Assembly (NCBI RefSeq): GCF_964355755.1
Contig: NC_092671.1
Coordinates: forward strand, 9,858,001-9,922,000
From: Antedon mediterranea
Lineage: Eukaryota > Animalia > Echinodermata
DNA: 64,000 nucleotides
Direction: 5' to 3'
A program made the position numbers and the translations under genes. Position 1 is the stretch's first letter, and each line of letters opens with the position of its first letter. Below are positions 11,100-62,461 of the stretch, piece by piece. The notes beneath the pieces are model-generated. The model was not told the origin of the DNA. It saw only the letters and a list, made by a program, of their open reading frames with translations, and made no database searches.

Positions 11100-11393
11100 G
11101 ACCCTATTTACACTTGCGATTTGGGTCCGGCAATCGATATGTTTAAACATGTCATAAAGTTAGGCTGGGCGGGATGCAGACCTGGGCCAGATGCAGACCT
11201 GGGCCGGATGCAGACCTGGGCCGGATGCAGACCTCGACCTCCTCTTGAGGTGGGTCGAGGAGCAGCTTTATGTTTAGGCCAGCATATGCCAATGGCTTGA
11301 GAAAATGAAGTAAATGAATCTTCAGGGCTGTATTTTGGAAAGTGTAAACACGTTGGATCGTCCCACGACACAATCGTAAGTGTAAATGGGGTT
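11100..11393. mobile_element. PIF/Harbinger-like MITE with an internal 17-bp tandem repeat and hairpin, downstream of the LARP4 stop
   Basis: TAA|GACCCTATTTACACTTGCGATT ... AATCGTAAGTGTAAATGGGGTT|TAA. About 4 copies of GGATGCAGACCTGGGCC (11166-11234). Hairpin CCTCGACC...GGTCGAGG at 11232-11260. Confidence 0.7.
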
Positions 11394-12435: not shown

Positions 12436-12738
12436 TTATTTCGTCTTCTGCGATGTCTGGTTTCGTCCGGCAGTCGGAGATCTACGGCCTCCAGGCGACC
12501 TTCGGCTTCCTGGGGAGCTGCGACCGTTTGATCTTCTTTTGTCGTTATCTCTATGGTTGCGTGTAGGTTGTTCGTTCTGGTCACGTTCTTTGTCTTGTTT
12601 TGGATTCGTTGTGGCATTTTTATTAGTTGGTGCGTTCTTTGCAGGTGGGGTATTGGTTTGACCTTGAGTCGGGCAAACTTCCCCTGGTCCTGGCTTCCTT
12701 CGTGCAATTGCAGCGTAGCTGAATTTCTTAGATGCATC
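12436..12738 (-). CDS. LARP4: LARP4-family coding exon 14 (terminal; SYAAIA motif, R/S/P-rich tail)
   Basis: Phase-0 acceptor gcag|GAT. DASKKFSYAAIARRK resembles the LARP4/4B RKPSYAEIC motif. Ends at TAA. Confidence 0.85.
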   Translation of the reverse strand, partial: DASKKFSYAAIARRKPGPGEVCPTQGQTNTPPAKNAPTNKNATTNPKQDKERDQNEQPTRNHRDNDKRRSNGRSSPGSRRSPGGRRSPTAGRNQTSQKTK

Positions 12739-13161
12739 CTGCGTTAACAAATCGACATAAGTGATTATAATAATAATTAATATGTTAATAACAATCAAAA
12801 TTAACAATAAAGTTATATTAACAAGATTTAAAAAAAGTGAAAACATCAGTTAATGCAGTAGAAATTTAAAGACAACAACAGTAAGAAAAAAGTAAATTTT
12901 TCTCCAGAAGACAGTTTAACAACAGAAACGTTAAAACATTTTCAGATCCAGGAGTAGTCTGGAGCTTTATTCCTTAAACTAGTTTGACAGTGTAGACAGA
13001 GCTTCAGAAAACACATAATGTACCGAAAACCGAATTTGCAATGATTTTTCATAAGTAAAATATGTTTGAAATTTATCATATTTGTTAAAAACAGAGAACA
13101 ACACAAACAAATAAAATAGAAATTTAATTATTTTCTCCACGATATACAAAAAAATACTTAC

Positions 13162-13417
13162 ACCAGAAGATGCACATTGTATTTCTGTTGCACTTGTTGT
13201 ATCAGCTGTTTCTTTTGCATTGATGTTACTAGTATTACCTTTGGTTGAAGCAGTCACGGGTACAGTCTCCTGTGGTGTAGGTGACATCTGATTACTGGCG
13301 GGCTTGGTAGTTGTTGTAGACGGGGCCTGAGATGATGAAGGTGTTTCATCAGATGAGCTCACAACGGCTTTGCTAGGCTCACTTGCTGCTTGATAGGACT
13401 TTTTTGTTGACTTTTTA
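13162..13417 (-). CDS. LARP4: LARP4-family coding exon 13 (S/T-rich)
   Basis: acag|T AAA AAG TCA ... TCT GGT|GTAAGT; phase 2 to 0, consistent with neighbouring exons. Confidence 0.8.
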
Positions 13418-14159
13418 CTGTGTGGGAAAAGTAGTTATAATAATTAGGAAAACAATTTTTTATCAATGTTTAAAACCATACAATTAGATGTTAATTACCA
13501 AACTGTCCATGCAATTAGATGTAAATGATCAAACTGTAATATATGGTATTGTGACGCTTGACCAACGAATCAGATTTTTCTTTTTTGTAATAATTGAATA
13601 TAAAAAATGTTATAGAATTTGCATGCACCAGTGAATTTTGTCTTTCAGTTTTTGGCGGTATTATTATGTGAATAACTCAAAATCAGCTTTACAAAGAAAG
13701 AAGAAATATAACCTTAAATCCAACCGATGATGCCGTGTTAACATAAACATTTGTTAAGGCCTTATTACTCTACCATGAACACATATTTTTCTGCATCCCT
13801 TTAGATACATTTTCACGAATGCAAAATTTATTTGATGAGATTTTATTACAAGAATTCTGTAGAGTAAGTAACACTTGCACATATAACTTATCAGTAGAAC
13901 AGCGTGTACAAACACCTCCCACACATTGTCACACATTAATAGTACTTGTATAACGATAATTTACCATCATTAGATGTGTGGGAATGAGAACATCAATACA
14001 GAGTTCACCAACAATTAATAAGCTGCTTCAAACGCAAAGTGCACAAATAAATCTTCAAGGCAACATGGATTTTAATTAAAAGTAACCCCAAAATGGATTA
14101 CTATCATTAATAACATCTTAATGTTTAAAAAAATTTTAATTCACCGGTAAAAAATCTGC

Positions 14160-14720
14160 CACATATCAAGATTTGGAGAGATGTATGGGTTTTGAAATGT
14201 TACAGACAGCATACATAACAAGAATAACTGACGACAATAGGTAGGTGGAGAAAAAGATTTTATAGAGTGGCGACCAAGACCTGGAAAAGTTGAAGACAAG
14301 GAAGAAAAAAAAGAAGGTGGAGATGACATGAAGAGATATTTGAGCAATTTAAACAGGTCGAATGATTGACAAAGGAAATTGAAAATTCTTGAGAAGGGTG
14401 AAATCCAGCAACCACAAAAATGAAAAGAATAAGCGAGAGACCAAGATCAAAAGATAGAAATGGATTGTGCCATGTGATGAGAAGGAAAAACAATAGTCAG
14501 TATATGCCACCAATCTGGTGATTCAAGCGTTGCATCCATTTTAAATAAAGTTGTTATTATTATATTATTATAGTTATGACATGAAAAGGCAGAAGAAGAG
14601 TTGGACGGCCCAAAACAACATGGAGGAGGACAGTGGAAATAGAGAGAAAACCTAGGATGGAGGACATGGAACGAAGAAAAACAAATCGCCGCCAATAGAA
14701 CCAACTGGAAATTGCCAATA
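14160..14720 (+). mobile_element. Degraded 3' fragments of RTE-like non-LTR retrotransposons
   Basis: Remnant peptides such as WRPRPGK and RRVGRPKTTWRRTVE...QIAANRTNW resemble RTE ORF C-termini; frameshifted. Confidence 0.5.
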
Positions 14721-14848
14721 CAGCCATATGGGCCAGGAGGCTCAAAGAGGTTAGGTAGGTAGTGGTGAGGTCATGTGGTGAAATCAAGTCATTAAGCAAA
14801 GATATCAAAACCATCAAAAGTTAAAAGCTATATACAAACTATACAAAC

Positions 14849-15021
14849 CTTTGTGTATTCGTCGTTTGTGGTGTTATAGGTGTTGATTTGTCAGGCTCTA
14901 TAGAGTTTGTAGGTGACACGCCAGATTTAGATGCAGGAGAGACATCAGATTTATTAGCTTGAGTTGTAGTTGTTGAACTACTTGCGTTCACGGTTTTAGA
15001 ATCTTGAGTTTTAACTGCTTT
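14849..15021 (-). CDS. LARP4: LARP4-family coding exon 12 (S/T-rich)
   Basis: ttcag|AAA GCA GTT ... CAA AG|GTTTGT; open frame KAVKTQDSKTVNASSSTTTTQ...; phase 0 to 2. Not present in the ORF track. Confidence 0.8.
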
Positions 15022-15462
15022 CTGAAATTTTACATTTAAATATTTTATAAAATCTGATAGAATAAAGACATTACAACATTATGAATGAAGATTTGATGCA
15101 TACTAACTACATTAATGGCTAAATAAGATATAGAGTACAATAAAACTCTAATTTTCTGACTACATCACTACTAAAACTAGAATTTATTAAGATTTTATAG
15201 AGAAATGTGGTTACTTGAAATATAGAAACCGGAAACATTGATAATAATAAAACTTATTTAATTATTTCTATGAATCATTAAACTCTCAATTCTCAAGTGT
15301 TTAATTCCCTTGTGCTGAGATTTAAATTTGAGTATAAAATTTGTGTTTTAATAGTTTGACATTTAAACCTATAATATCCATGCATAATCAATGTTATTTC
15401 ACGGTATTCATTTAACTTCATATTACACTCAAAGACAATCAACATAATTTTTCGTTACTTAC

Positions 15463-15721
15463 GATTCCTTTACAAATATCTGCAAACTTGGTAACAGTTT
15501 CTGCTTCTGTAACCTCTTTTTGTACGACCTCTTTCCCAACTTCGACTCTGGAGTTTTCGGTATGTCCTGGAAGTGGTGGAAAAGAGGAAGGGTCTAAAGA
15601 GGGCGAAGGAATTTTAACAACTGGTTCCTTCTCTTTGGTTTCTCTGAAAGATTTTCGACTGGATGCACTATCATGACGACGTCGAGGGCGCTCGTTGAAA
15701 GGCAAGCTTCCAGTACTTCTT
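15463..15721 (-). CDS. LARP4: LARP4-family coding exon 11 (PSPSLDPSSFPPLPG motif)
   Basis: Resembles LARP4B PSPSFELGLSSFPPLPG; ttcag|A ... ATC|GTAAGT; phase 2 to 0. Confidence 0.9.
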
Positions 15722-16051
15722 CTGAAACCAAATCAATTTAAACATTTTAACATGACAAAAAAATAATTCTTATATTATAAAAAATAGAGAAACAGGAACT
15801 GAGGTAAAAACCGCTCATTGTATAATATTCTGATTGTCTATACAATTAGTATCTTTCAAGTATGTTTTGAAAAATTCATTCACAAACAAATTTATTCACA
15901 GTAATACAATACCACTGTTTTTATGATAATTTAAAATATGTGAAACTGCAAACCGTCCGGTGATACTGTATACTGGTAATTAATTTAAGTAATTAATTAA
16001 TAAACATCTGTGACAATGAGAAAAAGTCGCCACAACCAAGATATAAACACA

Positions 16052-16176
16052 TAAGCATACTACCATATTTTATGTAAGCATACTACCATATTTTATGTAA
16101 GCATACTACCATATTTTATGTAAGCATACTACCATATTTTATGTAAGCATACTACCATATGTAAGCATCCTACCAT
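16052..16176. repeat. 23-bp minisatellite TAAGCATACTACCATATTTTATG, about 5.5 copies
   Basis: Direct tandem copies visible. Confidence 0.9.
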
Positions 16177-17197
16177 TAGACAACTGGGGTTTTTATGGTA
16201 TGGTTCAAACACAATTTAATAGTAACTCTTTAACATCCTTGGCATGGTACTATGGAAAACCACTGGTTCTCAATTGTACACATATGCAACAGATTATATG
16301 CCTTAGTCTTATATACTAATTTAAACAACACATAATCTAAAACTTCCATATTTCTATGAACTTATTTTTCTTCACGTGCTAAGTGTCCTAGGGGCCCTAT
16401 ATCCACAACCTGCAATCAATGGAACCTCACAACTGCCTCCTACACTCTTCACTGAAAACCTCTTGTATTACACCATTGAGGTCTGATTGCATTCAGCCTT
16501 ATTATATACATGTGGGCATATATCATTAAATCTATATGAAAAGCATTTCTTTAAGTTCTACATGACTTGTCTAACGATCCTCCCGAGTCTCGATTGCAAA
16601 ATATCAACACATAAAGAGCCGCGTGATGTAGTTATACTAAAATAAAGTTAATGAACTTTGGTTTATATGCTAGAATTGTTTTTATCATGTAGTTTCCATT
16701 TCTTATAAGCTATAATATGAATCAATTTCAACCAAGTATTTCTAATAATATTTTTCAAATTAGTACTAGTAGCTTTTACTCCTAATTTCTTTTGCATACA
16801 TATATTAAGTAACGAATAAAAAATGCGAATTCAATGATTTCCTTCTTTGAAGTAAGCTTTTCTAGGTCTTTGGATTTATTTTAGAGTTACATTAATATTC
16901 AGGGAACAAAACTAATCAGGGGACACTTTCCTGTGAAACAAAAAATGGACAAAACATTGTATGTTTTAACGCTACAGTCAACCAACACCTTTTAACATAG
17001 TGTTTTATAGGAGTTCATATTTTATGCTTAAAGCAGAATAGCTATATCATATCAGTTAGATATGTATAGATTTTTCTTATCAATCTCGCAAATTTATCCT
17101 TCACATTTACATATTGCTGGCAGTTGCCTTGCTGTTCAAATGTAAAGTTATCAACAACTGTTTTATTAATATTAATTATTTGTTTGCTTGAGCTTAC

Positions 17198-17491
17198 CTA
17201 TTCATTTGTTGTTGTCCCTTTACATTGTTATAATCCTCGTGATTCCTGGTTCGCGTATGCACGGGTCCATCATTATTCCGTCTGGTGAATCCGTTTTGTT
17301 GATAATCACGTCCTTCATTTGAAAGTTTCCTTTCATTTTTTTGTTCTCGGTCATAGTTCATAGGTCGAGGGTTACTATTAATACTTTGAGCTGTATGGCG
17401 TCGTTCATTTGCTTTATAAATGTTCTCATCAGAAACGCCATGCTCTATTGATCGAAATTCAGGTGTGCTCAATGTTCTGGACTTTGTTTGC
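17198..17491 (-). CDS. LARP4: LARP4-family coding exon 10 (R/N-rich)
   Basis: atcag|G CAA ACA AAG ... AAT AG|GTAAGC; phase 2 to 2. Confidence 0.85.
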
Positions 17492-18911
17492 CTGATAATT
17501 AATAATAAATGTTATTACAGCATAGCATAATAATAATAAAAAAAATATGAAAAAAACAGAACCAAAGACAATGAAGCTATGGTAAATAATAATGATACTA
17601 CTGTATATTAATAATGATGATGAAAGCAATGATGGACTAATAACTAAGGTTGGTTGGTTCAAATGCAAAGATACGGTACAGTAGCTAGGGTATAGATAAA
17701 TGCCGATTTATGTGGATCCCCAGTCGATAGTGATTTATAGTTCACTTTTGGGGTTCCCTGTTTGTTTGGGTCTATGTTCTTAGCTTGTGTATTTTATTGT
17801 TTTTGTTTTTGTATTGAGAAGTATAAAGGAAATGATCATTAAAACAATGATAGTTATACTGTTTAAATGTTGATGTTAAAATGTATTACATTACAAGATA
17901 AGTGAAAAGTGAAAATCACATTTGGATCTCACAAAACATTATTGAAACAAAAATGCAGCAATTGTGGAATAAAAATAGAATAATTTAAAATATGAAATGA
18001 TTGATGTCCGTTTACTTATTAGAGTGTTATTGTGTTTACGTATCACAACTTTATATCAAAACAAATTGATTGCCATGGGACCAAGTCCAACTAGATATTG
18101 GACGTTCATCTTAATTAATTATTCATTTTGTAATTATTAAAGATAATTATTAGATACTAAATGATATTAATCATAATGTATTTATTATTCTTTTTCCTGC
18201 TACCGATTTGTAAATGTTGACAACTAGCTATTATTTTTGGTTATATTAAAAAAGGTTTATTAGTAAATAAAATCTATTATTAATGTTTAACAATATTTAT
18301 TATTATTAATATAAACAGTTTATTAATAAAAACAATCTGTTATTAATGCTTAACAATATATTATTATTAAAAAGTTTATTAGTAAATATAATCTATTATT
18401 ACTGTTTAACAATATATTTTATTTTTAATATAAACAGTTTATTAGTAAACAGAATATATTATTAAAGCTAACAATATATATAAAATAATGTTGATTATTA
18501 TTATTGTTTAACAATATATATATTATTATTAATATAACTAGTTTATTATTAAACAGAATCTATTATTAAAGCTAACAATATATATTAAAATAATTTTGTT
18601 TATGGTAATAATTATGTAAGATATCCCACCGCACCAGAAATCATTAAACATATATTGTGCCTAGCAAATTATGACTATGATAGGATTCTAACTTGAATTT
18701 TGTATTACTATTCCCAAACATGGAACATCTTCAGCCCTAATGGTTCCTTCGGGGCAATCATTTAAAACTCTAGCAAATTACACTGCCTTAATGTTCACTG
18801 AACAATGCTATTAAACATTTCTCAGCACAGGGTATGAATTTACAATAATGGATATTATGTATGATTGTTTGCAATCAGTATACATATTAAAATAAACTGA
18901 AATCACATTAC

Positions 18912-19006
18912 CTGCTAGTCATATTTCTATTTGTATATACTTGTCGATTTCCGTAAGGTATTTTTTGATGAGGTGGAAAGGCACTAGAAGAGAAAGGCTG
19001 CTGCGG
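18912..19006 (-). CDS. LARP4: LARP4-family coding exon 9
   Basis: ttgtag|CCG CAG CAG CCT ... AGC AG|GTAATG; PQQPFSSSAFPPHQKIPYGNRQVYTNRNMTSR; phase 0 to 2 bridges exons 8 and 10. Confidence 0.8.
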
Positions 19007-20656
19007 CTACAAGACAAAATAAAACACCAGAAAATGTTATATATAATACATTTTTTGTTATACAACAAGCAAGTAATGAGCCAAACTGGATGGATAAACT
19101 ATAATTTATCATGCTTATAATGTAAATAATCCTTTCACATCGCCTAGCAAACACTTGAGCTTACACATAGCATAAAAAGCTAGGGAGGAGTGGAGGTGGA
19201 GTGTAAACTCTGAAGTTTTTCTAGGCAATGTCAAAGGGGTACTAGTCTCGTTTAAGGCTTTAAGCGCAGTAGAAAGAGTTGACACTAGGGTAGGACTGGA
19301 AGGCAAGCACGTAAACCACCAAGCAAAAGGGAAAAAAAAAACATTAAAGGCATTAACATAGCCTGCCCTCTATATGCATTAAATTTCTTTTCCAATTTAT
19401 TTCTTATGACTGTGCTAATTTATTGGTTCTGACACGGAGATGTATCACGGAAAACAGAAAAAAAAAAGAACTTGAGACAGTAATGTAATAAAACCATTTG
19501 CAGTTATTAAATAGACCATTTATGAGACTATATAATAATTGATTTCTCAGGTTTTCATGTGTTCTTATTGTGATAATAATGACGTAGGTATGAGGATTGA
19601 TAATGATTAATGATAACGGTAAGAATAATGTCAAATATTGCGTAAAATTAATAATCACATAACGGTTGATGATACAAGAAGAATGGGTAGATAAAACTAG
19701 TGAATAAAGGAGGTATGATGACGGCAGTGACGAGGTCGGTACTGGCAATGATAAGGAAGAGGATGTTAAAAATAATGATAACGCCAATGTTGTTCAGGAA
19801 GATGTCGCTAATTCAATGATGGATGATGACACTGTTGATAAAACGAAGACGACAACATAGTTATCTCTGGCATGAGCTAAAAAAAGACTAATGCTCTTAA
19901 TACATGGAAAGATAATGGTAAAGAATCTTAAATAATAAGATCAGGGCTAACAGCAAAACTTTGAAACAATTCATCATATCCGTGATTCACTAAGACCGTG
20001 AGCGTGCCCGTTAGTACATCCATCAATCTACTTGTCACAATCTCTTAGCGTACATACTGCATTAATCTATATGTTTTGTCTTGCCCACTCATCTTTCTGC
20101 CGTTCAACATGTATCACCACGCACTGCACACAAAACATTAACGTAATAAAAATAAAAGATAAATGAACTATAATAGCTATATATAAAAATAATCAATCTA
20201 AAACCTAATAAATATCAATAATATTTGAAATCAAATCAAACTTCAGCCCACACTAATGCCCAACAAAATCAATGTAAAATTATAAATAAATACAAAATAC
20301 ACAGCCAATAATAATTTCAAAATCATTAACTATTTCACAATTAAATAATAGAGAATATCAATAAAAAATGTACATTCACTTTGAACATTTTCACCTGCCA
20401 AAAAAATGTATGAAAACACTTTTCAGAACTAGTGGCAGATGGTACAGATTGAATGTGTTATAATCTCAATGCCAATTTTATAAATCCTTTATATTATATG
20501 AAAAACATGTTTGCACATAAATAATAAAATGAATATCATTATCAAACAGAAAATAAATTATGCGATAATTTTTAAACAAATTTTAAGAGGAATGATAGTA
20601 CTGTATATGAACAACTAATAAATGTTATTTTTGTGAATACTTCAATAAACTTGTAC

Positions 20657-20783
20657 AAGCCCATCCTCAATAGTAAGCCCATCCTCAATAGTAAGCTCAT
20701 CCTCAATAGTAAGCTCATCCTCAATAGTAAGCTCATCCTCAATAGTAAGTCCATCCTCAATAATAAGCCCATCCTCAATAATA
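20657..20783. repeat. 18-bp minisatellite AAGC(C/T)CATCCTCAATAGT, about 7 copies
   Basis: Direct tandem copies visible. Confidence 0.9.
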
Positions 20784-23081
20784 AGGCATCTTAAGTCACA
20801 AGTCCGTCTATAGAAAAGCTATTTGTAATGTATTTTAATTTTATTAGAGGCCTGTGAATAATATCAGTTGACACTCTGGGCAAAAACGGATAGATGGTTG
20901 AAAAAAAAAAATAAATAAATAAAAAGTAATTAGCCCAATTTTCTTCCACCCACCCAGTCAAGGCCTTCTAAGGTATTCTCCTAAGCGTAATTTTTTACTT
21001 TCGCACACAAAATGAGCCTAGGTTAATACCACCATCAAGAATTGTTTGCATACATCCTAACCAAGTTTATAGATTTCAATTTAATTCTTTTTTATTTATT
21101 AAAGATTAAATAACAAGTAGGTGTGTAACAAAATCACATGACGTTTTTCATCCAATACGGTTTAATTATAAAATATGATAATTTGGTAGGTAAATAAAGC
21201 ATGTCCGGTACAAATCATGAATGGAACAAAGGTTAATTAATTTGTATTTAGATTATATTGCTGTCACGCTTCACTGAATTCTATTGTTTATATTTAATAA
21301 TCATAGTTGAAATAATTAATTTTATATCAAATATTAGCCGGTTCATGTTAGTTATGTACAGATGTCTACGATTACTACGATAAAATGAATGTGTTTTTTT
21401 TTTTAAACTTTGGCTAGGAAAACAATTACATTTTACAAAGAGCTTATCATATTCTCAAGTGTAATTGTATCAATTTAGAAAAACAAAAATGTGTTAATGA
21501 CGTTTCCTGTATTGAATTTTAAAAAGAATTACCGAGTATAAAAGGCGATTATCAATTATATTGTTATGTTGTTTTTTATTCAGCACATTTACAGTGAAAT
21601 ATAAAAACATAAGAATTATACATTTAGATTAAACAAGAAAATTATTTGTACACAACGTAAACAACGATGTATCAAAAAAGAAATACAAGTATTTAACAAA
21701 TTAAAGGACTGGCATACAATATCAACTGAACATCAGACGAGTGATGGCGCAATTCACCGAACCATGACGAATGACAGAAGATCATGTCAACGTCATTTGC
21801 GTGACCAAGGCTACTGAAAATAGCCGAAACATAGCAACTAAGTACTTGACAACTGGTTTAACAAAAAAGTTAACATTTATTTTTTTAAATACAATATCAG
21901 ATTTTCTACACCCCCATGCTTTTGATCACAACATCTCCATTAAACTCTTATATTCTTACAATGACAACAAAATCATTCATACACAGTTGTTGACGTAAGC
22001 ACACGCTTAATGATGTAACAAAATCAGCTGTCTTTACTCTCCTGTCTTTTCTTTAACTTGTTTTTCACAATTTCTGTTCAGATTTCTGAGAGGCTAATGC
22101 ATGATGAAATAGCGATCTTAATAGGAAAGTATATCAAGATAAATTTCACAAGTTTTTATTGTAACGCAACTCTAAAGATAAATGGCTGGCTGTTAAAAGA
22201 TTCTGGATCTATTAATTAAAACTATTTTATACACATTGCTAAAAATGGCTGCTTTATCAACGTTTACAAAGAATAAGAATCAATTTTAATTAATCTAAAG
22301 TAACAAATTAGTATGATTATGTGGGACAAGTTATAATGACAGAATTTTTTGCAATACTGTCTTCTATTCTATAGATTTTTTCCATTTTCTAATGATGATC
22401 ATTTTTTTTTCCTGTAGAGATACTTTATTAGTTTTCCACAGAATATTGGAAGCAGCGCTCTTCGGAGATTTGTTAAATAGATTAATCAAATCATTGGAGC
22501 ATTAGGTACCAGCTTTAAATAAAAAATGATGTATTCCAAAGCGAGTTTGACAATTACTTGTCGGCTGCCATTAAAATTTAATCTTCAATTATATGTCAAG
22601 ATTAGCATGGCAGACATGAAAGGTTGCCAGGTTATCTGTACAATTATACCAATATAAACATTTTATTTTAATATGATAGATAATCTCAGATACTGTTTCC
22701 CAAAATTATGTTAATTACCATCTATACAAATATTAAAAAAAAAAAGTTTTATGATATTGCAGGACCATTAAGTTGTATATTATTTGTTGTATTGTGAAAT
22801 AAACAAATTGCATGCCACCTGATTTTAATGATGGCATATCTAAAAGTAAATATATGAATACACGATATTCAAATGGAAGAGCAATCAAAATGCACAGAAA
22901 TGTTTTTATTTTAACATTGTGCCCTCAACACACAACTGTGGAGTACAGTCACCAGCACAACTTCACAGAAGTGAGATATGATGGATGAACTATTGTAGTG
23001 CAACACAAAAAAATAGGAAATTCCCCATTTAAATATTATGTATGCGTATATATTGCAAAAAAAAAACCAACAAAATCTTAC

Positions 23082-40000: not shown

Positions 40001-40905
40001 ATAATGATAATGGCCTGCATGACTTTTTTATTGTCAAGGCAAACTACTGTAACTTTATTTTTTCAATTTTAATGTTATATGTGTGTACAGAGAAACAATA
40101 ACAACAAACAAAGGCATGGACCTATATACTGTAGATCCATTGTCAAGGTATGTAATACTGCAATATAACATAAGATGGAGAGATGCAAATATGTATGAAT
40201 ATCCATGTAATTGATATTCTTCCTAAATATTCTTCTGTCAGAAATATTTCTCAAATAAAGCAATGAGGAGCAATGGTTGTTGTTTTGCTTGGCCTCTATA
40301 TGCAAGATTCAATTCAGAAAGTATTATATTTGGTGGTAACTAGTACTAGCATCTTGTCAGATTATTGAGTTGAATAATGCATAAAAAACATTTTGATCAA
40401 TGCTAGTTAACAACTGCGTAACCCTAAAACTGAATAACTCTTAACTTATCGGTCAAACAACACCAACTGTTTGATGAATGACATGTTTTTAAAGTTGCGT
40501 AACATTAGTCTAACAGTCTATTTCGTGGAATTCGGCCACTAGAAGCACTTGGCTAATCATTCTGGAATATTTCAAGTTATTTTTCGCTAAAAAGGTAATC
40601 TACTTCTCTATTGTACTTTAATGGACATTCGTTTATTATATGAAATTCCCCAATAATAAATTATATAATATATCAATTTCTTTTATATTTTAATATGTTA
40701 AATTTTGATAAGTTTTTGTTTTATATTTATTTATTTAAAAATATATACAAATTTAAGTTAAATTGGTAAAAGGTGAATGTCACTTGGGTTAAAAATGAAT
40801 TACCTTATCCTTGATTGTACCACATAAATAAATACAATTATCAAATATAAATAATATATCAATATTATTATATACTGTATATATTTATAATAAATATTAT
40901 ATATA

Positions 40906-41677
40906 CCGTAGTTCCTCGGGTATAATCCCACCTCGAGTATAATCCCACCCCCGACTTTACGATTACCTTCGCACGCAAGCATATCCCCGGGCAAAGTCCC
41001 AGTGTATAATTTATCATTAGGACAGAGGTAGGCCTAGCTAGCTAGGCCGATTTTTTTAAAAGAAATTCTCACCAAAAAATAGAGTCATTTCTCTGAATTC
41101 GGCTGACTTAAAACTCATCAAACATTGGCCATCGTAAAGTTGAATACAACCTTAATATCATCGCCCCGATCTTCGCGTTCTGCACATCATGCATTCGCCG
41201 CACACTCGCTCGCCGTGTACATACACTGCATGCCTTGTTTACACTACTGCATGCTCGATTACCATAAAATAAACACCGCCCTCTATACCGACAGGAGCAG
41301 TACTGTAGTTCGTGTCACATGCAACAACATGCGATTTGCACAGAGCTCGAGCGTGGGGAATCGGGAGGAGAGACGGAGAACTCGTATGAGTTATGTCGAT
41401 ATTATTTAGGAAGCCAGCCCCAGATCACATTTTAGGGTATTTCTTAAGTAGAAATCTGGAAGAAAATCTATACAGTAGGCATAGACCAATTAGGCTGCCT
41501 AGGCCTAGATGACCTGGCAGTCTAATGTCTAGGCCTACATTGGAATATAGCTTTAGATAGCCTAAATGTTGTCATTTTCAGTTCATGCACCGGGAAATCC
41601 CCGGGTATAGTCCCACCTCCCAAATTCGGGCAAATTTTACGTACAAGGGGGGTGGGATTATACCCGAGGAACTACGG
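40906..41677. mobile_element. 772-bp non-autonomous Tc2/pogo-like element (MITE)
   Basis: Perfect 27-bp TIR CCGTAGTTCCTCGGGTATAATCCCACC at both ends, TA on both flanks, and extra sub-terminal copies of GTATA(A/G)TCCCACC. Confidence 0.92.
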
Positions 41678-41704
41678 TATATGTATTAGCTTACAAAGAA
41701 ACAG

Positions 41705-45768: not shown

Positions 45769-48321
45769 CTGCAAAACAATACGACAGGAAATATTTACTT
45801 TGTTAGTAGAAAGAGAAATAACTTCACATACAGAAGAATACCTCTTTTGGAACACTCCTATTCAATGGGCATCCCAATAAGGAGAAATATGTTTATTGTC
45901 TATAAGGACCAAAAGGACAGTGTCCCCATATTAAAGGTTCTACTGTACTAAACCACATTAATAAGGAAACATCCAATATTTATTTTCGCAATTATTTACA
46001 TACAACCTGTCCTATTGGTATATAAGTACCCTAGGCGTTGTTTTCTGTTCTTCTGATGATGAGAATAGTTTCTTGACACATGTCACATTTTAAGGCAGTT
46101 TGCCTATTCATTATGCCTCGCTATAGTTATTTTAACTGTACAACAAAACAAATCAAAATATTGGTCCCACTTAACCGATGAATAATTTTAGAGCCTGGGA
46201 TTTCTTTCTTTATTAAACAGCTGAATGAGTGGTATTAGTTTTAAAATTACCTAAATGATTGTAGTAATTGAGTATACCCAGATCAATAATATAAACGTTT
46301 TTTTTTTTTTAAATCACGATACTGTAGGTTAAAAAATTATTTCATTTGCTTTTATTTCAGAATTTTATGCACAAACGAATGTTAATCATTCATATCAAAA
46401 TATATTCTATTAAGAAATTCTAGTATGTTTAGTAGGATTCAGTCAAGTATGTTAATCATCAGCAAGCTTTAATGGTGTATAGCAGAAATGAGTAATTGTT
46501 GACAAGACAATAAGAATTCAATTTAATAGATATTTTCGCTAACGCAATCAATCATCAACATCAAGTTAGTGGGTCTATTCTCTCAGATTATCCTTCAAAG
46601 ACGTCATGGGACAGGAAAGTAAGACTAGATATTTTATGCACAGTTTTTTATGACCACATAATAATGCATTTGTGTTCTCTAAACAGCCATTTAATATGTG
46701 TGCGGTGCAATACTATCTAATACTACTACAGTATATGATACATTTTGCAGCTGACCTTTTCATTTTAACCTTTAGTCAGGTCTTAGCGAAACAGAAGTGT
46801 TGTTTTTCTAGTTCATGATAAATCTAGCCTCTGCTATTCAATATCACTTAAAACCTACTCATAGCTTTAATGATTTCGCCAATATGCTACATAAATCTAC
46901 ATAAATCTATACGTATATATATACTGATATCATATAATATTAATCAATTTAATCTAAAAAAATCCTATTCATTTTTATTCATTACATGACTGAACTAACA
47001 AAATATACAGCAAACTGTGATATGAATAACTGAATAAGCAAACATGCGGTTTCATCATTTTTATTTTAAAATTTGTTTATTCATAAATCATAGTAAATTG
47101 CATGACGGGTTCCTGTACAAATGTGGTTTAGTTTCAATTTATTATTATTACCGTACTGACTCGGGTATAAGCCCACCCCCCTTGAACATGAAATCACGTC
47201 AAGTTTGGGGGTTGGGCTTATACCCGAGGATCCAAAAATGCAGATCGTCAAAAACAGCACATGTACACTGTGTATTCCACCATGCGAGCGAGCGCCCTCA
47301 CGTGTACGACGTTGCCTCTACTAAATACACGAGGTGTACAGTACCGGACAGAATTATTGCAGATTTTGAACGCATTCAACGCATTGTTAAAGTGTTGACA
47401 ATGCGTTGAAACTGCGTTGTCCGTTGGCGTTGAAAGTGTTGAGTTCGTTGAACTGTTTATTCAACCAACACAATGTGTTGCGTTGAGTTTGCGTTGAAAT
47501 AACAATCGTATGTTATTTACAGATTGCCAGTGTGTATTAGTAGTAGTAGTAATAGTATAAAATACAGTATTACAAATAATGAAGAAAACAAACATAATGT
47601 GTATTTTTCCGCGGAAACTAATAATAAATTACACAAGGCTAGGCCTACTACTAACGTCGTAACGAGTAGGCCTGTGTGTATATGAGCTACGTCTGCCCTC
47701 GCATCTACAGTAGCGGTCATGTCCTCAATTACTGTGTGCCTACCGTATATTAAAACTGGAGTAGTAAATACCCATGTTAAGGCGGCGGTGAATCATGGAG
47801 GTTAGGCCACATCGTAATTAATTATTTCCAAACTAAAAACTTCGCAGTACTACATTTCTCAATTGATTGTAAAAACTACGTAGCCTATGCCAGTCGTGTG
47901 GAAGGCAACAATACACCAACATAATTTTACGATCTTTGGTCGTGTCTTTTTCACGCATGCTTTTCGTGACGTACAGTATGGGGGAACGAACTGATCGTCG
48001 AAAGGTGAAGAGTTCATTCATTATGAAATAACGCGTAATTGCAAGAAAAAATCGTTTAGTTTTATTATCCCTAAAATTATCATATATTATATTATAAATT
48101 AATTAATTAATTATTGTGACGCCTAATGTAACCCATGCAGAGAAAAGCGTTAAATAGAATAACCAAGAAATAGGAATGACTAATCTGATGCAAGACAATA
48201 AGGCAATGTTAGGCGTTTTCTTTAAAATCAAAACCTTATTGTTCCTTATAATAACACAATTGTATGAATGGGATGGGAGTTTTTGCGAAAGATTTTTGTG
48301 GACACATTCGAAAGAAATTTC

Positions 48322-49185
48322 ATGATGAAAACACCTTGCACTACTAGATCCAGAATTATACGTTTACGCGACCGTGGTAACACTGTCAAACAGATACAGG
48401 AAACGCTCAACGATGATGGCATAAAGGTACACGACACAACGATTCGGCGAATTTTGGAACGATTCAATAGCAATTCGACGATTGCCGATAAAGCTCGCAC
48501 TGGCCGGCCCAGTAAATTTAGAGACGAACACTTGGCAATTATAAACAATGAAATGGATGCCAACTCAGAATTGAATTCAAGTAAGTTGCGGGATATATTG
48601 GAAGAGAAAACAGGCTGTACATTTTCAGACAGATCCGTAAGACGACGACGTAGGAGACTGGGATGGGTTTGCGAAGGTGCAAGATATTGCCAATTAATAA
48701 GAGTAAAGAATCGGATTGATCGATTTGATTTCGCAGTGAAATGTATACGAAATGCCGAACAGTTCAAACGTGTTATCTTTACAGACGAATGTACAATTGA
48801 ACTTGATAATCACGCTAGAATTACATTTAGGAAGCTGCATGAACAACCGAAATTGAAACCTAGGGCCAAACATCCAACAAAAGTACATGTATGGGCGGGA
48901 ATTTCTACAGAGGGAGCGACGCCAATAATCATATTCGACGGGATAATGCGGAAAGAATTTTATGTGGACACGATTTTAGATCAAGTATTACGTCCGTATG
49001 TTTCAGCTAAGTTCACAGATAACAAATTCCGTTTCATGCAGGACAACGATCCCAAACATACTTCGCGTTACGCTGCCGATTATTTCACAAGAGAGAACAT
49101 ATATTGGTGGAAAACCCCGGCGGAGTCACCAGACCTTAATCCCATCGAGCTTGTGTGGCATCAACTTAAAGATTTTTTACGAAAG
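48322..49185 (+). CDS. Tc1-family DD34E transposase, exon 1
   Basis: Paired-like HTH N-terminus, RTGRP linker, poly-R NLS, VIFTDE, VWAGIS and FMQDNDPKH...SPDLNPIELVW with 34 residues between D and E. Donor AAG|GTAATT. Start placed at MMKT; an upstream in-frame ATG at 48268 is possible. Confidence 0.93.
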
Positions 49186-49344
49186 GTAATTCAATTCATC
49201 TTTTATTGGTCTAATTCTCATAATGTAAGTAAAAATCGGTGTTCATACACTGCAGTTTAAAAACAATGTTTAAAACATTTTAATTGTCTACGAAATTGTT
49301 TATAATTATTCTGTATAACGTAATTTTACGATTGTATTTTATAG

Positions 49345-49500
49345 GAATGGAAACCGATGGTGAAGGCTGAACTGGTTGCAGGCATCAATCAGTTTTGGAA
49401 AACAAAGATGAACCGTAAACTGTGCAGGAAATATGTATCCCATCTGAGAATCGTCGTACCTGCTGTTATTAGATGCAAGGGACACGCGACGGGTTACTAG
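49345..49500 (+). CDS. Tc1-family transposase, exon 2
   Basis: Acceptor ttttatag|GAA. EWKPMVKAELVAGINQFWKTKMNRKLCRKYVSHLRIVVPAVIRCKGHATGY* matches the typical Tc1 C-terminus. Spliced product is 339 aa. Confidence 0.9.
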   Translation, partial: EWKPMVKAELVAGINQFWKTKMNRKLCRKYVSHLRIVVPAVIRCKGHATGY

Positions 49501-49726
49501 TGCCGATTTATTTCGAGTCTCATTTATCTCGCGTTTTTAATATTGTGTTTAGTTTAACGAATGTAATATATAATGTTTAGTTGCCATTTATCTCTGGAAA
49601 TTACGCTTAGTTAAGTTTTATGCTGTACATATTTACTGTGGTATGATCCATATTTTAATGTGTACTGTATTATTAAATTCCTTATTTCAATCATGCTATT
49701 ATATATATTATATATTAAAGTATACA

Positions 49727-49950
49727 ACAAAAAGCCAAACTATAATTGCAATTGATTTTATTTATTTATATATCAAAGACCTAGAAAACAAACGAAAGGA
49801 ATAAAAACAAAAAGCCAAACTATAATTGCAATTGATTTTATTTATTTATATATCAAAGACATAGAAAACTATAATTACAATTTAATTTTATTTATAAATC
49901 AAAGACATAGAAAACAAACGAAAGCAATAAAAACAAAGGCTAACAATGGC
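49727..49950. repeat. About 80-bp AT-rich tandem duplication between the convergent transposase and cargo gene 3' ends
   Basis: ACAAAAAGCCAAACTATAATTGCAATTGATTTTTATTTATTTATATATCAAAGAC occurs twice at a period of 80, plus degenerate copies. Confidence 0.8.
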
Positions 49951-50011
49951 AAAGAATAAAAAATAGTACAATTTAAATACATTACAATTACAATATAAGT
50001 TAAATCTAGGC

Positions 50012-50746
50012 CTACTCTCGTTGGTGTCTCTGTTTAAATTTAATTTGTCTACGTGCTGAATCAATTGACTTAAGGCATTCTTTCCATCTAATATCAATTT
50101 CTGCAACAGGGGCAGGCGCTAGGTTAAACACTTCAGTCTTAATGTAGTCCAGTCTAGTCGCGTCGAGTCGAGCAGCGCCGTTTCGTCCTGACGTATTGCA
50201 ATTGCGTCTTTCTTCTTCAGTAAAGAAGTATTCAGTCAATAGTCGTGCCATCTTTAGTCGGTCGTCAGTAAAGCTAAGTAGTCGTCGTCGTAAGTCCTGT
50301 GGTATTTGATGTGTATCATTGTCATTGTTCAATGGTGGTTGGTGTTGTGCTGCTTGTGGCTGTTGTCTGATGTTAGTTTGTTGTTGTAAAGTTGCCATAA
50401 TGTCAGATACCTGTTGATGTAGTGTTGCGATTTCGTTTGTTTTCTGGTCCAGTAGTTCTCGTAGCTGTTTGTTTTCGTCCTTTATGTCTTTTAGTTGGTC
50501 TTCCGTACGTCCCAGTCTAAGTTCAAGTCGGTCTTGGCGACGCTCCATCTCATTCTTATCATCCCATCTGTCACTCGCAAATGTCATTTCCTTGTCGTAG
50601 TCGTTGGTCAGTTCGTCTAGTGTCTGGTCTGCGTTGTGGAGGTCGACGTTGTCGGTGTCATAGATCATGAATCTGTTCTCAAATTCTTCGTCAGAGTCAG
50701 CAGTTGGTGGTAGCGGCGGATGAGTTACTTCTATAACTGTCGCAGC
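50012..50746 (-). CDS. Cargo gene exon 3: coiled coil plus C-terminal BEN domain
   Basis: Acceptor atgtag|GCT is in frame with ORF 50012..50668. Heptads RLGRTEDQLKDIKDENKQLRELLDQKTNEIATLHQQV. ARLLTEYFFTEEERRNCNTSG...LDATRLDYIK...WKECLKSIDSARR fits the BEN pattern. Confidence 0.88.
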   Translation of the reverse strand, partial: AATVIEVTHPPLPPTADSDEEFENRFMIYDTDNVDLHNADQTLDELTNDYDKEMTFASDRWDDKNEMERRQDRLELRLGRTEDQLKDIKDENKQLRELLDQKTNEIATLHQQVSDIMATLQQQTNIRQQPQAAQHQPPLNNDNDTHQIPQDLRRRLLSFTDDRLKMARLLTEYFFTEEERRNCNTSGRNGAARLDATRLDYIKTEVFNLAPAPVAEIDIRWKECLKSIDSARRQIKFKQRHQRE

Positions 50747-51120
50747 CTACATAAAATATAAACAAAAGAAACTTCATTAATCGACCTGCAAAAATTACGT
50801 AATTAATAAGGGACACATGTACAGTTATGGTTTTGTTTTTTTGTTTTTTTTGGTTTGGTTTCAAGGTATTAAAGATGTATTGTTTCCCCAAAACCATGAA
50901 AAATTAAAATTAATAAAATCTGACTATGAATGGGTTATTTTATAGTTTCAATAAAGTTACTCACTTCGGCAAAAAAACCCAAAACAATTTGACTATTTTT
51001 TGCTTTAAATTACACATGTTAAGGTAAATACATTTTTTCAAACAAATTTTTGGTAAAATCTATGCGACATTAACATTGTGATAAGTAATCTAATACAATG
51101 TCAACAGAATTTAAGCCTAC

Positions 51121-51354
51121 CTTCTTTGTAACATCGACAGTACTCTGACGGCGTCTTCTTTTTGGTGCAGGTTCTGGTATGTTATCTACATTATCGCCAT
51201 CACCATCATCACCATTGTCGTCATCATCACTATTGTCGCCATCATCATCATTGTCGCCATCACCATCAATACCATCGTCATCTTTGTCAACTCGTTGGTC
51301 GTCTGCCTCGGTCATAAATTCGTATGGGATCGTTTCCCCCGTTTCTGCTTTTAC
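51121..51354 (-). CDS. Cargo gene exon 2: D/G-rich acidic tract and NLS (PKRRRR)
   Basis: atacag|GTA AAA GCA ... AAG AAG|GTAGGC; phase 0 to 0; open frame. Confidence 0.85.
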
Positions 51355-51781
51355 CTGTATCAGAAAAAAATATTTAGTTTAAACATTTGCCATACATTTA
51401 AAAAACGATACATTGGTTGGGTCAAGTATTTTAACTAACAATAAATTTAACAATATCATTTGTGGAAATATGTAAAACAATTTAATTAAAAGGTGACTTA
51501 TTCCTTAACACTTTTTAAAAAGATGCTCGACTTTGAACTAAAATATCATAAAACAAAAGTGAATGAACCTATAACGAAATAAATAAACCATAGATAATTA
51601 AGTATTTTAACTAACAATAAATTTAATTTAAAACGGGCAACAATAGGCCCCTATCATTTTTGAAAATATGTAAAACAATTTAATTAAAAAAGCGACCCCT
51701 TCCTTAACATTTTTAAAAGAGATGATCGCCGTTTGAACTAAATATCATAAAGCCAAAAAAATATGAATGTCGATTACTCAC

Positions 51782-52093
51782 CTCTGATGCAAATATATCA
51801 TTAAACTTAACAGCAACTACTGGTCCTCTCAATCCTGACGCAAGTACTCGTTGGACCAGGTCTCCTCTTTGTAACTTTTTAGGGTCGCCTGTCTCCGGAA
51901 AGTGTTCGCGGTTGATCTTACATTGTCGTTTCTTCATTGGAAGTCTTACGTACTGTAATTTGACGTGGCTTACAGAATTATAGCCAGTCCAGGATACTAC
52001 AACGGCATCGGGATAAACTCCCTTAACAGTTCCTCGTAACCAAATACCAGAATCTGGGTCAATAGCTTGTACAGCTTGTCCGCGTTTAAACAT
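51782..52093 (-). CDS. Cargo gene exon 1: Tudor/Agenet-like beta-barrel
   Basis: aaaATG start. FKRGQAVQAIDPDSGIWLRGTVKGVYPDAVVVSWTGY...VKLQYVR fits a Royal-family barrel pattern. Donor GAG|GTGAGT, phase 0. Spliced product is 426 aa. Confidence 0.8.
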
Positions 52094-55000
52094 TTTGTAA
52101 CAGTAATATAATATAATTCGATAATGATCAGCAGCAACTAAGATTGGAATGGTGGAAAAACTGAGTATTGCTAAGGTTTTTATGCTTATTTCCATGAATT
52201 GAAATATTTATATTGTTTTTTTACAATAACTGACCGTCACAAAAGCCATTGTTAAAACTAGAGCGGCGACGACTTGAAACGCGTTACCGATAACAGCGGT
52301 TTCACTATTGATGTCACTGACGCATTGTTGAACGTTTCATCAAAGCTCAACGACTTCAACGTGTTGAACGCTATTGAATTCCATTGTCTAACGTATTCAA
52401 TGAACGATACGCGAACGCTCAACGGGTTCAACACATTCAACGCGCTTGTTTTTAAACATAATGTTTTATTGGATAATTATTTATTTATTTTGGTATACAA
52501 GATAAGAGGAAATAAAGGCCGGTATACAAACATTAAAAATTCCCAGCCAATATTAAGTAACACATAAATGATAGTAGTATAATATACAATCTACCTTATT
52601 TGATTTAGTAATTAAAAACAAACATTTCTAATGAAATAACATGCCTTGTGTAAGCAAAATACCCTTTTAAATACAAAATACAGTGTATTCTAATATAACA
52701 TTTGACAGTTCATCAATCAATATTGTTTGTATTGTTTTCGGCCACAAGTAGCGATCAGGGAACGCGAGACCATGTTCGTTGACTCTCTTCCTCATTTGCT
52801 TCCACTTTTAAGCGCAGTTTCTGCTGCCAAAAAAATACGGTATATATACGTCCGGTATTAAAAAAATACCGTATAAAATACGGTATTTTCTTGGCAGCAG
52901 AAACAGGGCCTTATATGAGTATCAGTCAATGTTTATTATTATTTATGATGCAGTCGTATTTTGAAAATAAGGAGATAATTCATGTTTTTGATCTCGGGAG
53001 TGGAGGAGGATTGAGTGTTTTTGAGTTTTATAAATTAAAGTTATGAGTTCAACCAAATGTGTTTATTGGTGGTTTTGGTGCTATTAGCTACTGAGTTGTT
53101 CACCGGAAAATTTAAGGGTGGGTTACTATTTTCAGATTCCTAATTTAAGATTAGTAATAGTAACCCCCCTTCTAATAGTAACCCACCCTAAAAAACAATC
53201 AAATAATAGTAACCCATAAATACGTAAAAAGTTATTAAGAAAAGAAACACCGTTCCGTTGCTTTATCCCTACCATAGACCTACCATATCATTAACCATAA
53301 CATTATTATAAATTAACATTCACGCCTAATGTAACCCACGAAGAAGAATAATTAGAATAACAAAAACAAAACACCGTTAGTTTTATTAATATATTTATAG
53401 GTCTATCTCTTAAATTTAATATACATTACAACTACAATGTTATACGGTAAGTCTACGGTGCCATACCATATTATTTACGCCTACAGGTAGGTGTAACCCA
53501 CAAATATTAGAATAACAAAACAATTCAGAATAAAGAATTATTCTGATGCAAGACAATATAGTATAGGTTAGGCGTTTTCTTTTACCATATTATTGTTTCT
53601 TGTTAATAATTACTTTGGCCTGCAACTGTATGAATGGGATGGGAGTTGCGAGAATATGCGAGAGAACAGTCAACATTTCAAACACTTACAGTGTACCGGA
53701 TAGAGTGGAGCGCATTGTTTGATGCTTTTCAAAACGCTTAACGTTTTCAACGCGTTCAACGCTATGGAAATCAATTGTTTAACGTCGTCAATGAACGGTC
53801 AACGGGTTCAACACATTCAACGCGCTCTATTGTTAACGTATTCAAAACGCTTTGTTGTACTTAAAAATGTAAATGTAATGTTGTTCGATTTATATATTGG
53901 TTCAAAGGCGTCGACACGTCGCATTTTTTAGTTCTTTAAAATTACATGGGACCAATTACAAAATAAAAACCAAAATAGAGAAACATTATTTTAACTTTAT
54001 TTCTTGAATCCTCTTGAATCTCGAACAGCTAAAAAATGTAGGCCTAAATAAAATTAGTTACTTCGTCGTCTCATTAACGATCGTTAAAATACGTCATAAC
54101 ACACGTGGTGTTTTTCTTGAGGAACCGGAAGCCGGAGTGGCGGCCTCGTGTGTTGATTTTTCAGTTTACCAGGTTGTTTGATTTTACGACGTGAGATCGT
54201 GTTTTTCTCGTCAGACCTACAGTACAGTGACTGTTAGTGTTAGGCTTAGCATCGACCTTATTATTCGATGTTTTCCTTCACTAAACACTGGGAAATAAAT
54301 TAACACTGAGGATCACTGTGTGTTTTATTTGGTAACTGTCTGTTCAATACATAAAATATATAATATGAAGCTATATTTTGTTTTATATTAAAATATCTGG
54401 TAGTGACTGCCGATAGGTATTTTGCCTGTTGTTGTTACTGATCGTTCAGGCGTGCAATCGGCCAGTCAAGTGCTGCAGCAGCTAGCGTTGAAATAACTAA
54501 TTGTTTACTTGACATGCTGATAATGACTTTCGTTGAATAAACAACTAAACGTTGAAAGCCGTTCAACGCAACGCAAACACAACGCAACGACAACGTGTTG
54601 AATGCGTTGGGATTTTTGCAATAATTCTGTCCTGTACTGTAGAGTGTCGGAAAATTAAGCTTATAGTTCGTGTAATTTATCGTAGAATATTTTATTTTAA
54701 ACATCAATTGAACAAGAATTTATCAAGCAGAAAAGCAAGTATACAATGTTCGTTAAATAGAAATGTACCAAAGAAATTTAATAAGCTTGTTTATGGCAGC
54801 CGATACCAAATAGTGGTTTGCCGTTTTGGCGACTTGTAGCGTCATGTGTGAAGCGATCTTCGACCGCTATGGAGTGTAAACAAAACAGGACCGCTAGGCC
54901 TCATATGGCCTAGCGTATATTAGCCTAGCTTGGTTATGATCAAAGGTAGGTGTATTCGGTGTATGGACGTCGCCAAATACAAAATAATGTATTACGACAC

Positions 55001-55621
55001 ACACTGTAGATCTTCAAATTAATGGGTGGGCTTATACCCGAGTGCCTCATTTTTCATGAAAATTAGTCAAAAGTCGGGGGTGGGCTTATACCCGAGTATG
55101 GGCTTATACCCGCGTCAGTACGGTAATCAGAGAAGTTTGTACACACGTTAACTGTAAGTTGCTTGGTTTTCATTTAATGTTATTAATGTTATTATATTAA
55201 TATTACTTTTCTATTATTAATATAATGACTGCATTCAACATTTAAGCAGGGTACAGTTTTGCGTAATTCCTTTATTTGTAATGATTTAGTCAGAATTAAC
55301 TGCATCTACAGTTCTGACTTCTGTATAGTGCTGAATAAACCATTTATTTCAATAAAATCATTCTTAGACTGACCGCATTTCTGCTAAATTTGTGCTCTCA
55401 ACTAACCGAATAAATTAGTTGGTAAATGACAAAAACCTTAACGTATTACCCAAAATGCAATGTGATCGTTCAATTGTTCACGATTCTACAGTACAGCTGT
55501 CAATCAAATTTACCGTTATTTCGTGGTGAAGCTAAAAGTTGCAGTGATAACCGGTAAATGGCGTTGAATATTTTATAAACTATTTGTGTCAGAATACAAG
55601 CAATTTGTGCTTTCAGCGAGT

Positions 55622-62282: not shown

Positions 62283-62461
62283 AGCGTGGTTCCCACTAGA
62301 ACGTAATGCAAGGACGTAAACGCAACGCAAGCGTTTTAACCAATCACAAGCGAAGTTATAGACAGTTAGCCATCACAAGCGAATAAGCCATCGCTTGTGA
62401 TTGGTCAATTCACTTGCGTTGCGTTACGTCCTTGCGTTGCGTCGCTAGTGGGAACCAAGCT
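62283..62461. mobile_element. 179-bp near-palindromic PIF/Harbinger-like MITE; end fragments at about 62606 and 62648
   Basis: TAA|AGCGTGGTTCCCACTAG ... CTAGTGGGAACCAAGCT|TAA with about 70-bp inverted arms. Confidence 0.85.

Follow-up and report, generated by a model that had tools for sequence, protein, structure and literature searches.

The stretch of DNA analysed here (64,000 nucleotides of the genome of the echinoderm Antedon mediterranea, contig NC_092671.1, positions 9,858,001 to 9,922,000 of the forward strand; hereafter, the window) harbors a complete Tc1-type DNA transposon. In addition to an intact transposase gene, this element carries a second intact gene (hereafter, the cargo gene), whose predicted product joins a Tudor fold, a coiled coil and a BEN domain. 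A short CpG-containing motif is gathered within the element into four clusters (C1-C4), and the possible relationship between these clusters and the BEN protein is the subject of the present analysis. The element, its ends and its genes are arranged as follows (positions are those of the window):

47339-54639, plus strand: complete Tc1-type element, 7,301 bp, with the flanking TA at 47337-47338 and 54640-54641
47339-47361, plus strand: left terminal inverted repeat (TIR), 23 bp, near-perfect inverted match
54617-54639, minus strand: right TIR, 23 bp, near-perfect inverted match
48047-48281, plus strand: segment P, located before the transposase gene, with further copies at 53245-53364 and 53492-53647 (blastn, 69-74% identity)
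48325-49500, plus strand: transposase gene, 339 amino acids (aa), DD34E, exons 48325-49185 and 49345-49500, free of stops and frameshifts
50012-52093, minus strand: cargo gene, 426 aa, intact, three phase-0 exons
52093-51782, minus strand: cargo exon 1, Tudor fold
51354-51121, minus strand: cargo exon 2, acidic
50746-50012, minus strand: cargo exon 3, coiled coil and BEN domain
53245-53647, plus strand: two diverged copies of segment P

The element is classed as Tc1 by its catalytic triad, its TA duplication and its TIRs: in the translation of the transposase, 34 residues separate the second D from the E, a paired-like double helix-turn-helix (HTH) is present, TA is found on both sides, and the TIRs start with CAGT. 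The inverted arms (47337-47361 and 54617-54641) share 96% identity, and the empty site can be seen in the contigs of three runs, in which 47320 is joined to 54638 with one TA. On the basis of what is known of Tc1/mariner elements, the left TIR is likely the site bound by the transposase. The single intron of the transposase gene was predicted from its GT-AG borders and from homology; the Pfam matches of the protein (DDE_3, 57.6 bits; HTH_Tnp_Tc3_2; HTH_32) are all over the cut-off, and its closest relatives are about 50% identical. Segment P is likely the promoter and 5' leader of this gene. Tc1 elements are usually compact, with the transposase as their sole gene, a build which is not strictly defining; the element of the window departs from it in its length (7.3 kb) and in its second intact gene.

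The splicing of the cargo gene was also predicted. The BEN domain of exon 3, which takes up the last 97 residues of the protein, was recognized by Pfam with 32.2 bits (cut-off 23.2), and the comparison of the profile of an alignment of 70 BEN relatives with solved structures retrieved BEND3-BEN4 (E 1e-18) and BANP (1e-10). The model of this domain has a predicted local distance difference test (pLDDT) score of 96.9, and its top Foldseek rows are all BEN domains (BEND3/BANP; probability 1.0, E 0.03). The residue R86 of the cargo protein aligns with R810 of BEND3, which contacts the CpG, and is nearly invariant in the alignment of the BEN relatives, while the position of BEND3 E807 is occupied by a serine. 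The identity with BEND3 and BANP is about 30%, which is too low for the specificity of the mammalian BEN domains to be transferred to the cargo protein. As for exon 1, the predicted model of its first half, built on a 4-sequence alignment, has Tudor domains as its best matches (E 0.002, TMt 0.88), and a further search gave only sub-threshold Tudor/Agenet leads. Three database proteins (P0124, P0130 and P0135) have the same layout as the cargo protein, and five others of 840-1030 aa (P0121, P0122, P0123, P0125 and P0126) contain two or three BEN domains of its BEN subfamily. A word-based protein search disclosed no relatives of exon 3 or exon 1, a blank which is weak because HMMER found 184 BEN relatives; viral contigs searched with the cargo protein and the transposase gave no match.

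Motif arrays and a gene-less derivative

A preliminary description of the sequence had pointed out four clusters of the motif within the element, and the counts reported below bear it out as to their number and positions:

47365-47500, no strand assigned: C1, left subterminal motif array; TCAACG six times, CAACG eight times, CpG observed/expected ratio 1.56
52270-52446 (core 52321-52447), no strand assigned: C2, internal array, 180-350 bp upstream of the cargo ATG; TCAACG four times
53711-53850, no strand assigned: C3, internal array, paralog of C2, adjoining no gene; TCAACG four times
54486-54610, no strand assigned: C4, right subterminal motif array; TCAACG four times, CAACG nine times
52349/58/67, 52421/30/39, 53740/49/58, 53801/10/19 and 47428/37/46: triplets of the motif with a 9-bp step

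On both strands together, C1-C4 (578 bp) contain 18 copies of TCAACG, against two in the remaining 6,723 bp of the element, ten in the 56,699 bp outside it and hence 12 in the whole non-cluster 63.4 kb of the window. The longer word TTCAACG was found 19 times in the window (14 of them inside the clusters), against 6.6 +/- 2.5 in 100 dinucleotide shuffles, all of which stayed below 19. The bounds of the clusters were chosen by eye, and their ranking was re-derived with a sliding count (150 bp) of CAACG/TTCAAC along the entire window: the four clusters come first (14, 14, 9 and 8 matches), followed by a count of 6 near position 726 and by counts of 3 or less. That weak fifth cluster (726-830, six matches in 150 bp) does not align to the element.

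The unit of the arrays can be written as T-T-C-A-A-C-[G/A]-C and is frequently repeated as triplets with the 9-bp step given above. C1 and C4 had been placed inside the TIRs; the near-perfect TIRs measure only 23 bp, and the two clusters sit just inward of them, their first units stretching an imperfect inverted match to about 50 bp. C2 and C3 align on the same strand with 75% identity (138 columns) and represent a single array present twice, so that these two clusters are not independent of each other. The CpG observed/expected ratio is 1.29 in the element, 1.6-2.5 in the arrays and 0.55-0.64 in the CpG-depleted flanks. At position 47402, the high-copy family has a C where the window has a T; the C restores a palindromic CAACGCGTTG unit, and the T of the window looks like CpG decay.

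A high-copy derivative of the element lacks the following stretch:

48237-53457, no strand assigned: stretch deleted in a high-copy non-autonomous derivative; both genes and C2 gone, C1, C3 and C4 kept

The joint of this deletion (48236 to 53458) has a depth of 12,333 in run X4 and of 162 in run X8, in which the empty site is present as well. In X4, the depth is 384-512 for the single contigs spanning the genes and C2, 270-330 for the flanks and about 11,000-22,000 for the element ends, and the mean bin depth is 21,722 at 53716-53999 (C3) versus 522 at 52296-52579 (C2), contig depth being a rough ratio rather than a copy number. Since the depth ratio is about 25, a high-copy derivative without the genes and C2 must be present; it measures about 2.08 kb and keeps 14 motif copies, six being lost.

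Two other organisms (B and C) have both genes, about 83-97% identical, and in each of them the pair is linked by one contig. Some contigs of B and C fuse the transposase (48728) to the BEN exon (50076) and represent another deletion derivative, in which the genes are linked. The contigs of organism B track cargo exon 1 and its promoter as far as 52232, beyond which they diverge. Coverage by contigs does not extend to the part of C2 that is unique, and this is a hint only; in organism C, too, C2 falls in a gap of the coverage, which does not amount to its absence.

The right 1.4 kb of the element (53245-54639) consists of a copy of the transposase leader, followed by a copy of the cargo promoter array and by the end, which is the anatomy of an older gene-less derivative. 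The element may therefore be chimeric, its left part being autonomous and its right part non-autonomous. C3 was also considered as the terminus of a nested element, and this idea was rejected because no inverted partner exists for the TIR-like word at 53689. Three small repeats of high copy number interrupt the element (50888-51058, 52811-52910 and 52940-53216), with a depth above 100,000 in two of the bins in X4; the first of them recurs at 1188-1440. The Tc1 element lies in turn inside a small non-autonomous element (47149-55125) of very high copy number, whose ends read TACCGTA and whose interior holds inverted repeats; a relative of this small element (77-84% identical) is located at 40904-41679.

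BEN genes and end arrays in related elements

Related loci were retrieved by scanning metagenome contigs with a 30-sequence transposase alignment, and the best 80 of 540 loci were analysed. BEN open reading frames (ORFs) were called at E<0.005 with a profile built from 150 phmmer matches. A BEN ORF adjoins the related transposase in 15 of the 80 loci, in convergent, tandem or divergent layouts; other cargo exons were found at seven further loci (L004, L010, L011, L024, L049, L053 and L080), and most of the remaining contigs stop too early for the presence of a cargo to be judged. In a quick tree of 76 of the 81 rows (five were omitted for short coverage, and two compact elements form long branches), the BEN-bearing loci fall into six subclades, besides the branch of the window itself, of a 74-row group containing the element of the window. 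Both TIRs are present in eight in-group loci. L020, L027, L063 and L066, belonging to three families, are complete (6.3-9.0 kb), with a full transposase region, and all four have a BEN gene; in the four BEN-less loci (L039, L078, L079 and L042), the transposase is in every case partial or broken. L039, L078 and L028 are derivatives of the L027 family, and the transposase ORF of L028 is intact. The two-gene BEN design is lineage-wide among the related Tc1 elements. Related first exons, with a small beta-rich look, were observed in four loci (L020 3592-3843, L024 4730-4960, L063 14039-14266 and L041 2878-3069); a Pfam scan of three related cargo first exons gave no match, and a Tudor-like module may be common to the related cargo genes but diverged.

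Directly inside their TIRs of about 25 bp, the related elements contain arrays of 150-300 bp in which a motif specific to each family is repeated:

Family motifs, first group: CGCAAG (L027), ATTTCG (L020), ATATCG (L019), AATTCG (L010), AAGTCG (L063)
Family motifs, second group: ATTACG (L064), AAACGG (L080), CCCGTA (L040), ACGAGA (L006), ACTCGA (L008)

An array was called when a 6-mer array reached a fixed threshold (-log10 p of at least 5). By this measure, 28 of the 32 in-group ends are array-positive (25 with a CpG word), a proportion which is inflated because the ends were partly found through their arrays: six ends were located in this way, the TIR seeds came from array-bearing loci, and near-duplicates and L076 were omitted. 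The same threshold was reached by 44 of 600 random windows, by two of 32 outer flanks and by none of the four ends of L072 and L077, which are compact, cargo-less and more distant Tc1 elements.

The arrays are family-specific also with respect to the TIRs. In 11 of 11 families, the motif matches its own TIR no better than foreign ones, without any match to TIR bases 1-25. L063 and L064 have in common 22 of 25 TIR bases and three of the six motif bases, and among L063, L064 and L080 the TIRs are alike and the motifs wholly changed. In several families, the first copy of the motif is found at +26 to +42 of either end. The motif of the window forms no CAACG/TTCAAC cluster of at least six matches per 150 bp in any of the 80 loci. 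An end array of TCTCG/CGAGA with TCTCGCGAGA palindromes, near the BANP motif, was observed in L001 (3760-3888), L005, L006 (3460-3649) and L003; these arrays of the L003 family could recruit the host BANP too. A gene-less element of 1.7 kb, which has related TIRs and a CTCGA array at each end, lies in L002 (2290-4005).

The element of the window is the only one in which internal arrays of the own motif were observed; none is present in L027, L020, L063, L003 or L019 (at most two matches per 180 bp). A supposed internal array of L003 was rejected, since the comparison with L004-L006 revealed a permuted assembly fusing the right and left end arrays. This bears on the suggestion, already made in the preliminary description, that the cluster close to the cargo promoter allows autoregulation, and on its extended form, according to which the arrays serve mainly the regulation by the BEN protein of its own promoter, like the internal target arrays of VANC. 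C2 does precede the cargo ATG by 180-350 bp, and directly precedes TCAGTT (near 52229-52234), a word resembling the initiator consensus, and VANC is reported to have its targets in internal non-coding tandem repeats (PMC5735166). However, internal arrays of the own motif are absent from all five related families, and the gene-less derivative has lost C2 and retained C3, which adjoins no gene. Since internal arrays occur only here and the derivative keeps three of the four clusters, autoregulation is poorly supported, and it is very improbable that it is the main function of the arrays. The retention of C3 also means that an internal cluster does occur in a cargo-less relative, which had been indicated as a finding adverse to the whole proposal; it counts against autoregulation and not against BEN binding, because the derivative could use the BEN protein in trans.

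What may bind the arrays

It is known that BEND3-BEN4 binds a CCCACGC core through R810 (PMC8887127), that methylation of the CpG of this core blocks the binding (PMC11514455) and that BANP prefers the site AAATCTCG (PMC10206803). The family motifs have the size and the CpG core of BEN sites, the unit of the window ends in ACGC and R86 is kept, all of which is counted here as support for binding by BEN proteins; the same holds for the resemblance of the TCTCG/CGAGA array of the L003 family to the AAATCTCG site of BANP. Also counted in favor are the BEN genes and family-specific end arrays of the related elements, the CpG ratio of the element, which exceeds that of its flanks, and the precedent of TnpA of Spm. 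On balance, the evidence tips slightly towards the idea that the arrays are binding sites of the element's own BEN protein, which would work like TnpA of Spm or the Myb-like protein of Harbinger.

The candidate BEN target in C1-C4 would be TTCAACGC. The BEN monomers might read its AACG(C) core via the conserved arginine, and the coiled coil would allow several BEN proteins to load on units spaced by 9 bp. Once bound, the protein would act on the ends in cis, and in trans on the gene-less copies. Its most likely effect would be that of keeping the ends unmethylated and open to transcription and to the transposase, the latter acting on the outer 23 bp; it might possibly also aid end pairing. C2 and C3 would represent a duplication peculiar to the family of the window, and C2 may tune the cargo promoter, which would not be the general role of the arrays.

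A different possibility is that the arrays are extra sites of the transposase, bound by its first HTH (HTH1) and working as transposition enhancers or self-activation sites, and that the BEN gene has another job. Transposases binding subterminal repeats are described for Lemi1/Emigrant and, as cited in the same report, for Sleeping Beauty and pogo (PMC1636448), and the terminal arrays are kept in all the gene-less derivatives. However, half of the TIR is reproduced in the subterminal repeats of Lemi1/Emigrant (PMC1636448), whereas the motifs described here are unlike TIR bases 1-25; the TIRs remain stable in L063, L064 and L080 while the motifs change; and the SRRGV start of the HTH1 recognition helix is common to L063 and L064, the motif not being so. 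Moreover, both compact single-gene elements are array-free, and C2 and C3 lie at 0.8-2.3 kb from the nearest end.

Several observations weigh against the binding of the arrays by the BEN protein, and some of them point to the transposase instead. The AtMu1 transposase alone is reported to bind, hypomethylate and activate its own ends (bioRxiv 10.64898/2026.08.24.746577). At the two ends, the first copies of the motif adjoin the TIR at comparable distances, and in the L027 family the first copy falls within the perfect TIR (+26 to +33), potentially within reach of an HTH. The residue equivalent to R810 is K or Q in L027, L020, L019, L070, L063 and L075, although their motifs contain CpG. Of 11 related BEN ORFs scanned with Pfam, four were above the cut-off, three were sub-threshold (split exons) and four were missed. 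The array count is inflated, as said above, and L076 has an in-group left TIR without an array and without a BEN gene within 9.8 kb. Arrays also persist in the BEN-less L039, L078, L079 and L042, where the transposase is partial or broken, and in L028, with its intact ORF; no BEN-bearing kin of L042 was found among the loci analysed. In addition, the motif cores are kept between C2 and C3 not significantly better than the spacers (p 0.09 and 0.41), and the high CpG content of the element may just reflect a recent insertion. Lastly, HTH1 diverges as fast as BEN (between L063 and L075, the identity is 49% for BEN and 43% for HTH1). The families differ in both motif and BEN sequence (between L020 and L019, for instance, ATTTCG is replaced by ATATCG, and N by H in the recognition helix). 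BEN and transposase are inherited together, and their co-variation with the motif therefore cannot separate BEN from HTH1. Because of this equally fast divergence, the reading of the arrays as extra transposase sites keeps some weight, and it is considered unlikely rather than negligible. As regards the element-specific protein/motif pair originally proposed, the BEN domain, its CpG-reading arginine and the occurrence of BEN genes together with own end motifs in the related families speak indirectly in its favor, while the alternative of transposase sites is only weakened.

It might also be that no protein of the element binds the arrays, which would be read by host factors (CpG-island binders or Myb-like proteins) or would be by-products of local repeat expansion. 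The duplication from which C2 and C3 originated, the lack of significant conservation of their cores over the spacers and the fixed 9-bp step, as slippage would give, are all in line with this idea. It explains less well that, from one family to the next, the same subterminal position is taken by a different motif, that the same motif is common to both ends of an element in mixed orientations, and that nearly all the motifs contain CpG despite CpG-poor flanks, and it is considered improbable.

Two other features were observed in the window: a small hairpin element whose arms are rich in AACGC (62300-62450) and an open frame of 613 codons on the plus strand (3046-4884), the second half of which is low-complexity.

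Relation to known transposon systems

The binding of the arrays by the BEN protein would find its closest counterpart in Spm/CACTA, whose TnpA binds dense family-specific clusters of terminal motifs and hypomethylates the ends (bioRxiv 10.64898/2026.08.24.746577). Arabidopsis Spm1 resembles the element of the window in having a second DNA-binding protein and dense, family-specific clusters of CpG motifs at both termini, which are retained by non-autonomous copies. Unlike Spm, the element of the window has a Tc1 transposase, a TA duplication and an animal host; moreover, its putative helper is a Tudor-fold/coiled-coil/BEN protein rather than a TnpA domain of transposase derivation, and is a candidate binder on the grounds of its sequence. 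Harbinger3_DR of the PIF/Harbinger group (PMC9710019) is likewise a two-gene animal DNA transposon whose second protein is described as binding a 9-bp subterminal motif, but that second gene is of the Myb/SANT/MADF type and the duplication is of 3 bp, in contrast to BEN and TA in the element of the window. VANDAL elements share with it a fast-diverging second gene (VANC) and short tandem motifs differing between related families (PMC5735166); however, they are plant Mutator-like elements, the targets of VANC are internal and non-coding, and no domain is shared. The likeness to VANC is weaker because the arrays considered here are mainly terminal. No Pfam domain of TnpA or VANC (DUF1985, DUF287) was detected on the three cargo exons at E<=1, and the cargo and its element belong to none of the TnpA, VANC and Harbinger families.

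Lemi1/Emigrant, which belongs to the same superfamily, has repeated motifs just inside the TIR (PMC1636448). BEND3-BEN4 and BANP have the same fold and the CpG-reading arginine, and their CCCACGC and TCTCG cores resemble the motifs of the window and of L003 (PMC8887127, PMC11514455, PMC10206803, PMC11472053); unlike the cargo gene, these are host genes and not transposon cargo. The ciliate elements Tec and TBE also combine a DD34E transposase with extra genes, which are not BEN genes, Tec carrying a recombinase (PMC7325037); the word BEN does not occur in the accessible text of this Tc1/mariner superfamily survey (PMC7325037). No Tc1/mariner element with a BEN gene was found in the literature searched, Repbase and subscription papers lying outside this search. 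L31 elements with a second ORF have been reported, and a prior notice is possible.

Tc1/mariner elements, on which gene-transfer tools are based, are the textbook example of transposons with one gene, and a BEN helper gene is unexpected in a transposon group that is usually single-gene. As a wider and more tentative proposal, which at present is somewhat doubtful, a widespread lineage of animal Tc1 elements might encode a sequence-specific anti-silencing Tudor-BEN factor that binds, and co-evolves with, family-specific CpG arrays at the ends; it would be an animal counterpart of TnpA and VANC of plants and would offer a natural panel of BEN domains, each with its own motif. If this is true, animal DNA transposons, like the plant Spm and VANDAL, can carry sequence-specific factors for counter-silencing or end assembly. 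Each family provides a BEN domain along with a candidate motif, and therefore both the BEN recognition code and the evasion of methylation by animal transposons would be directly testable.

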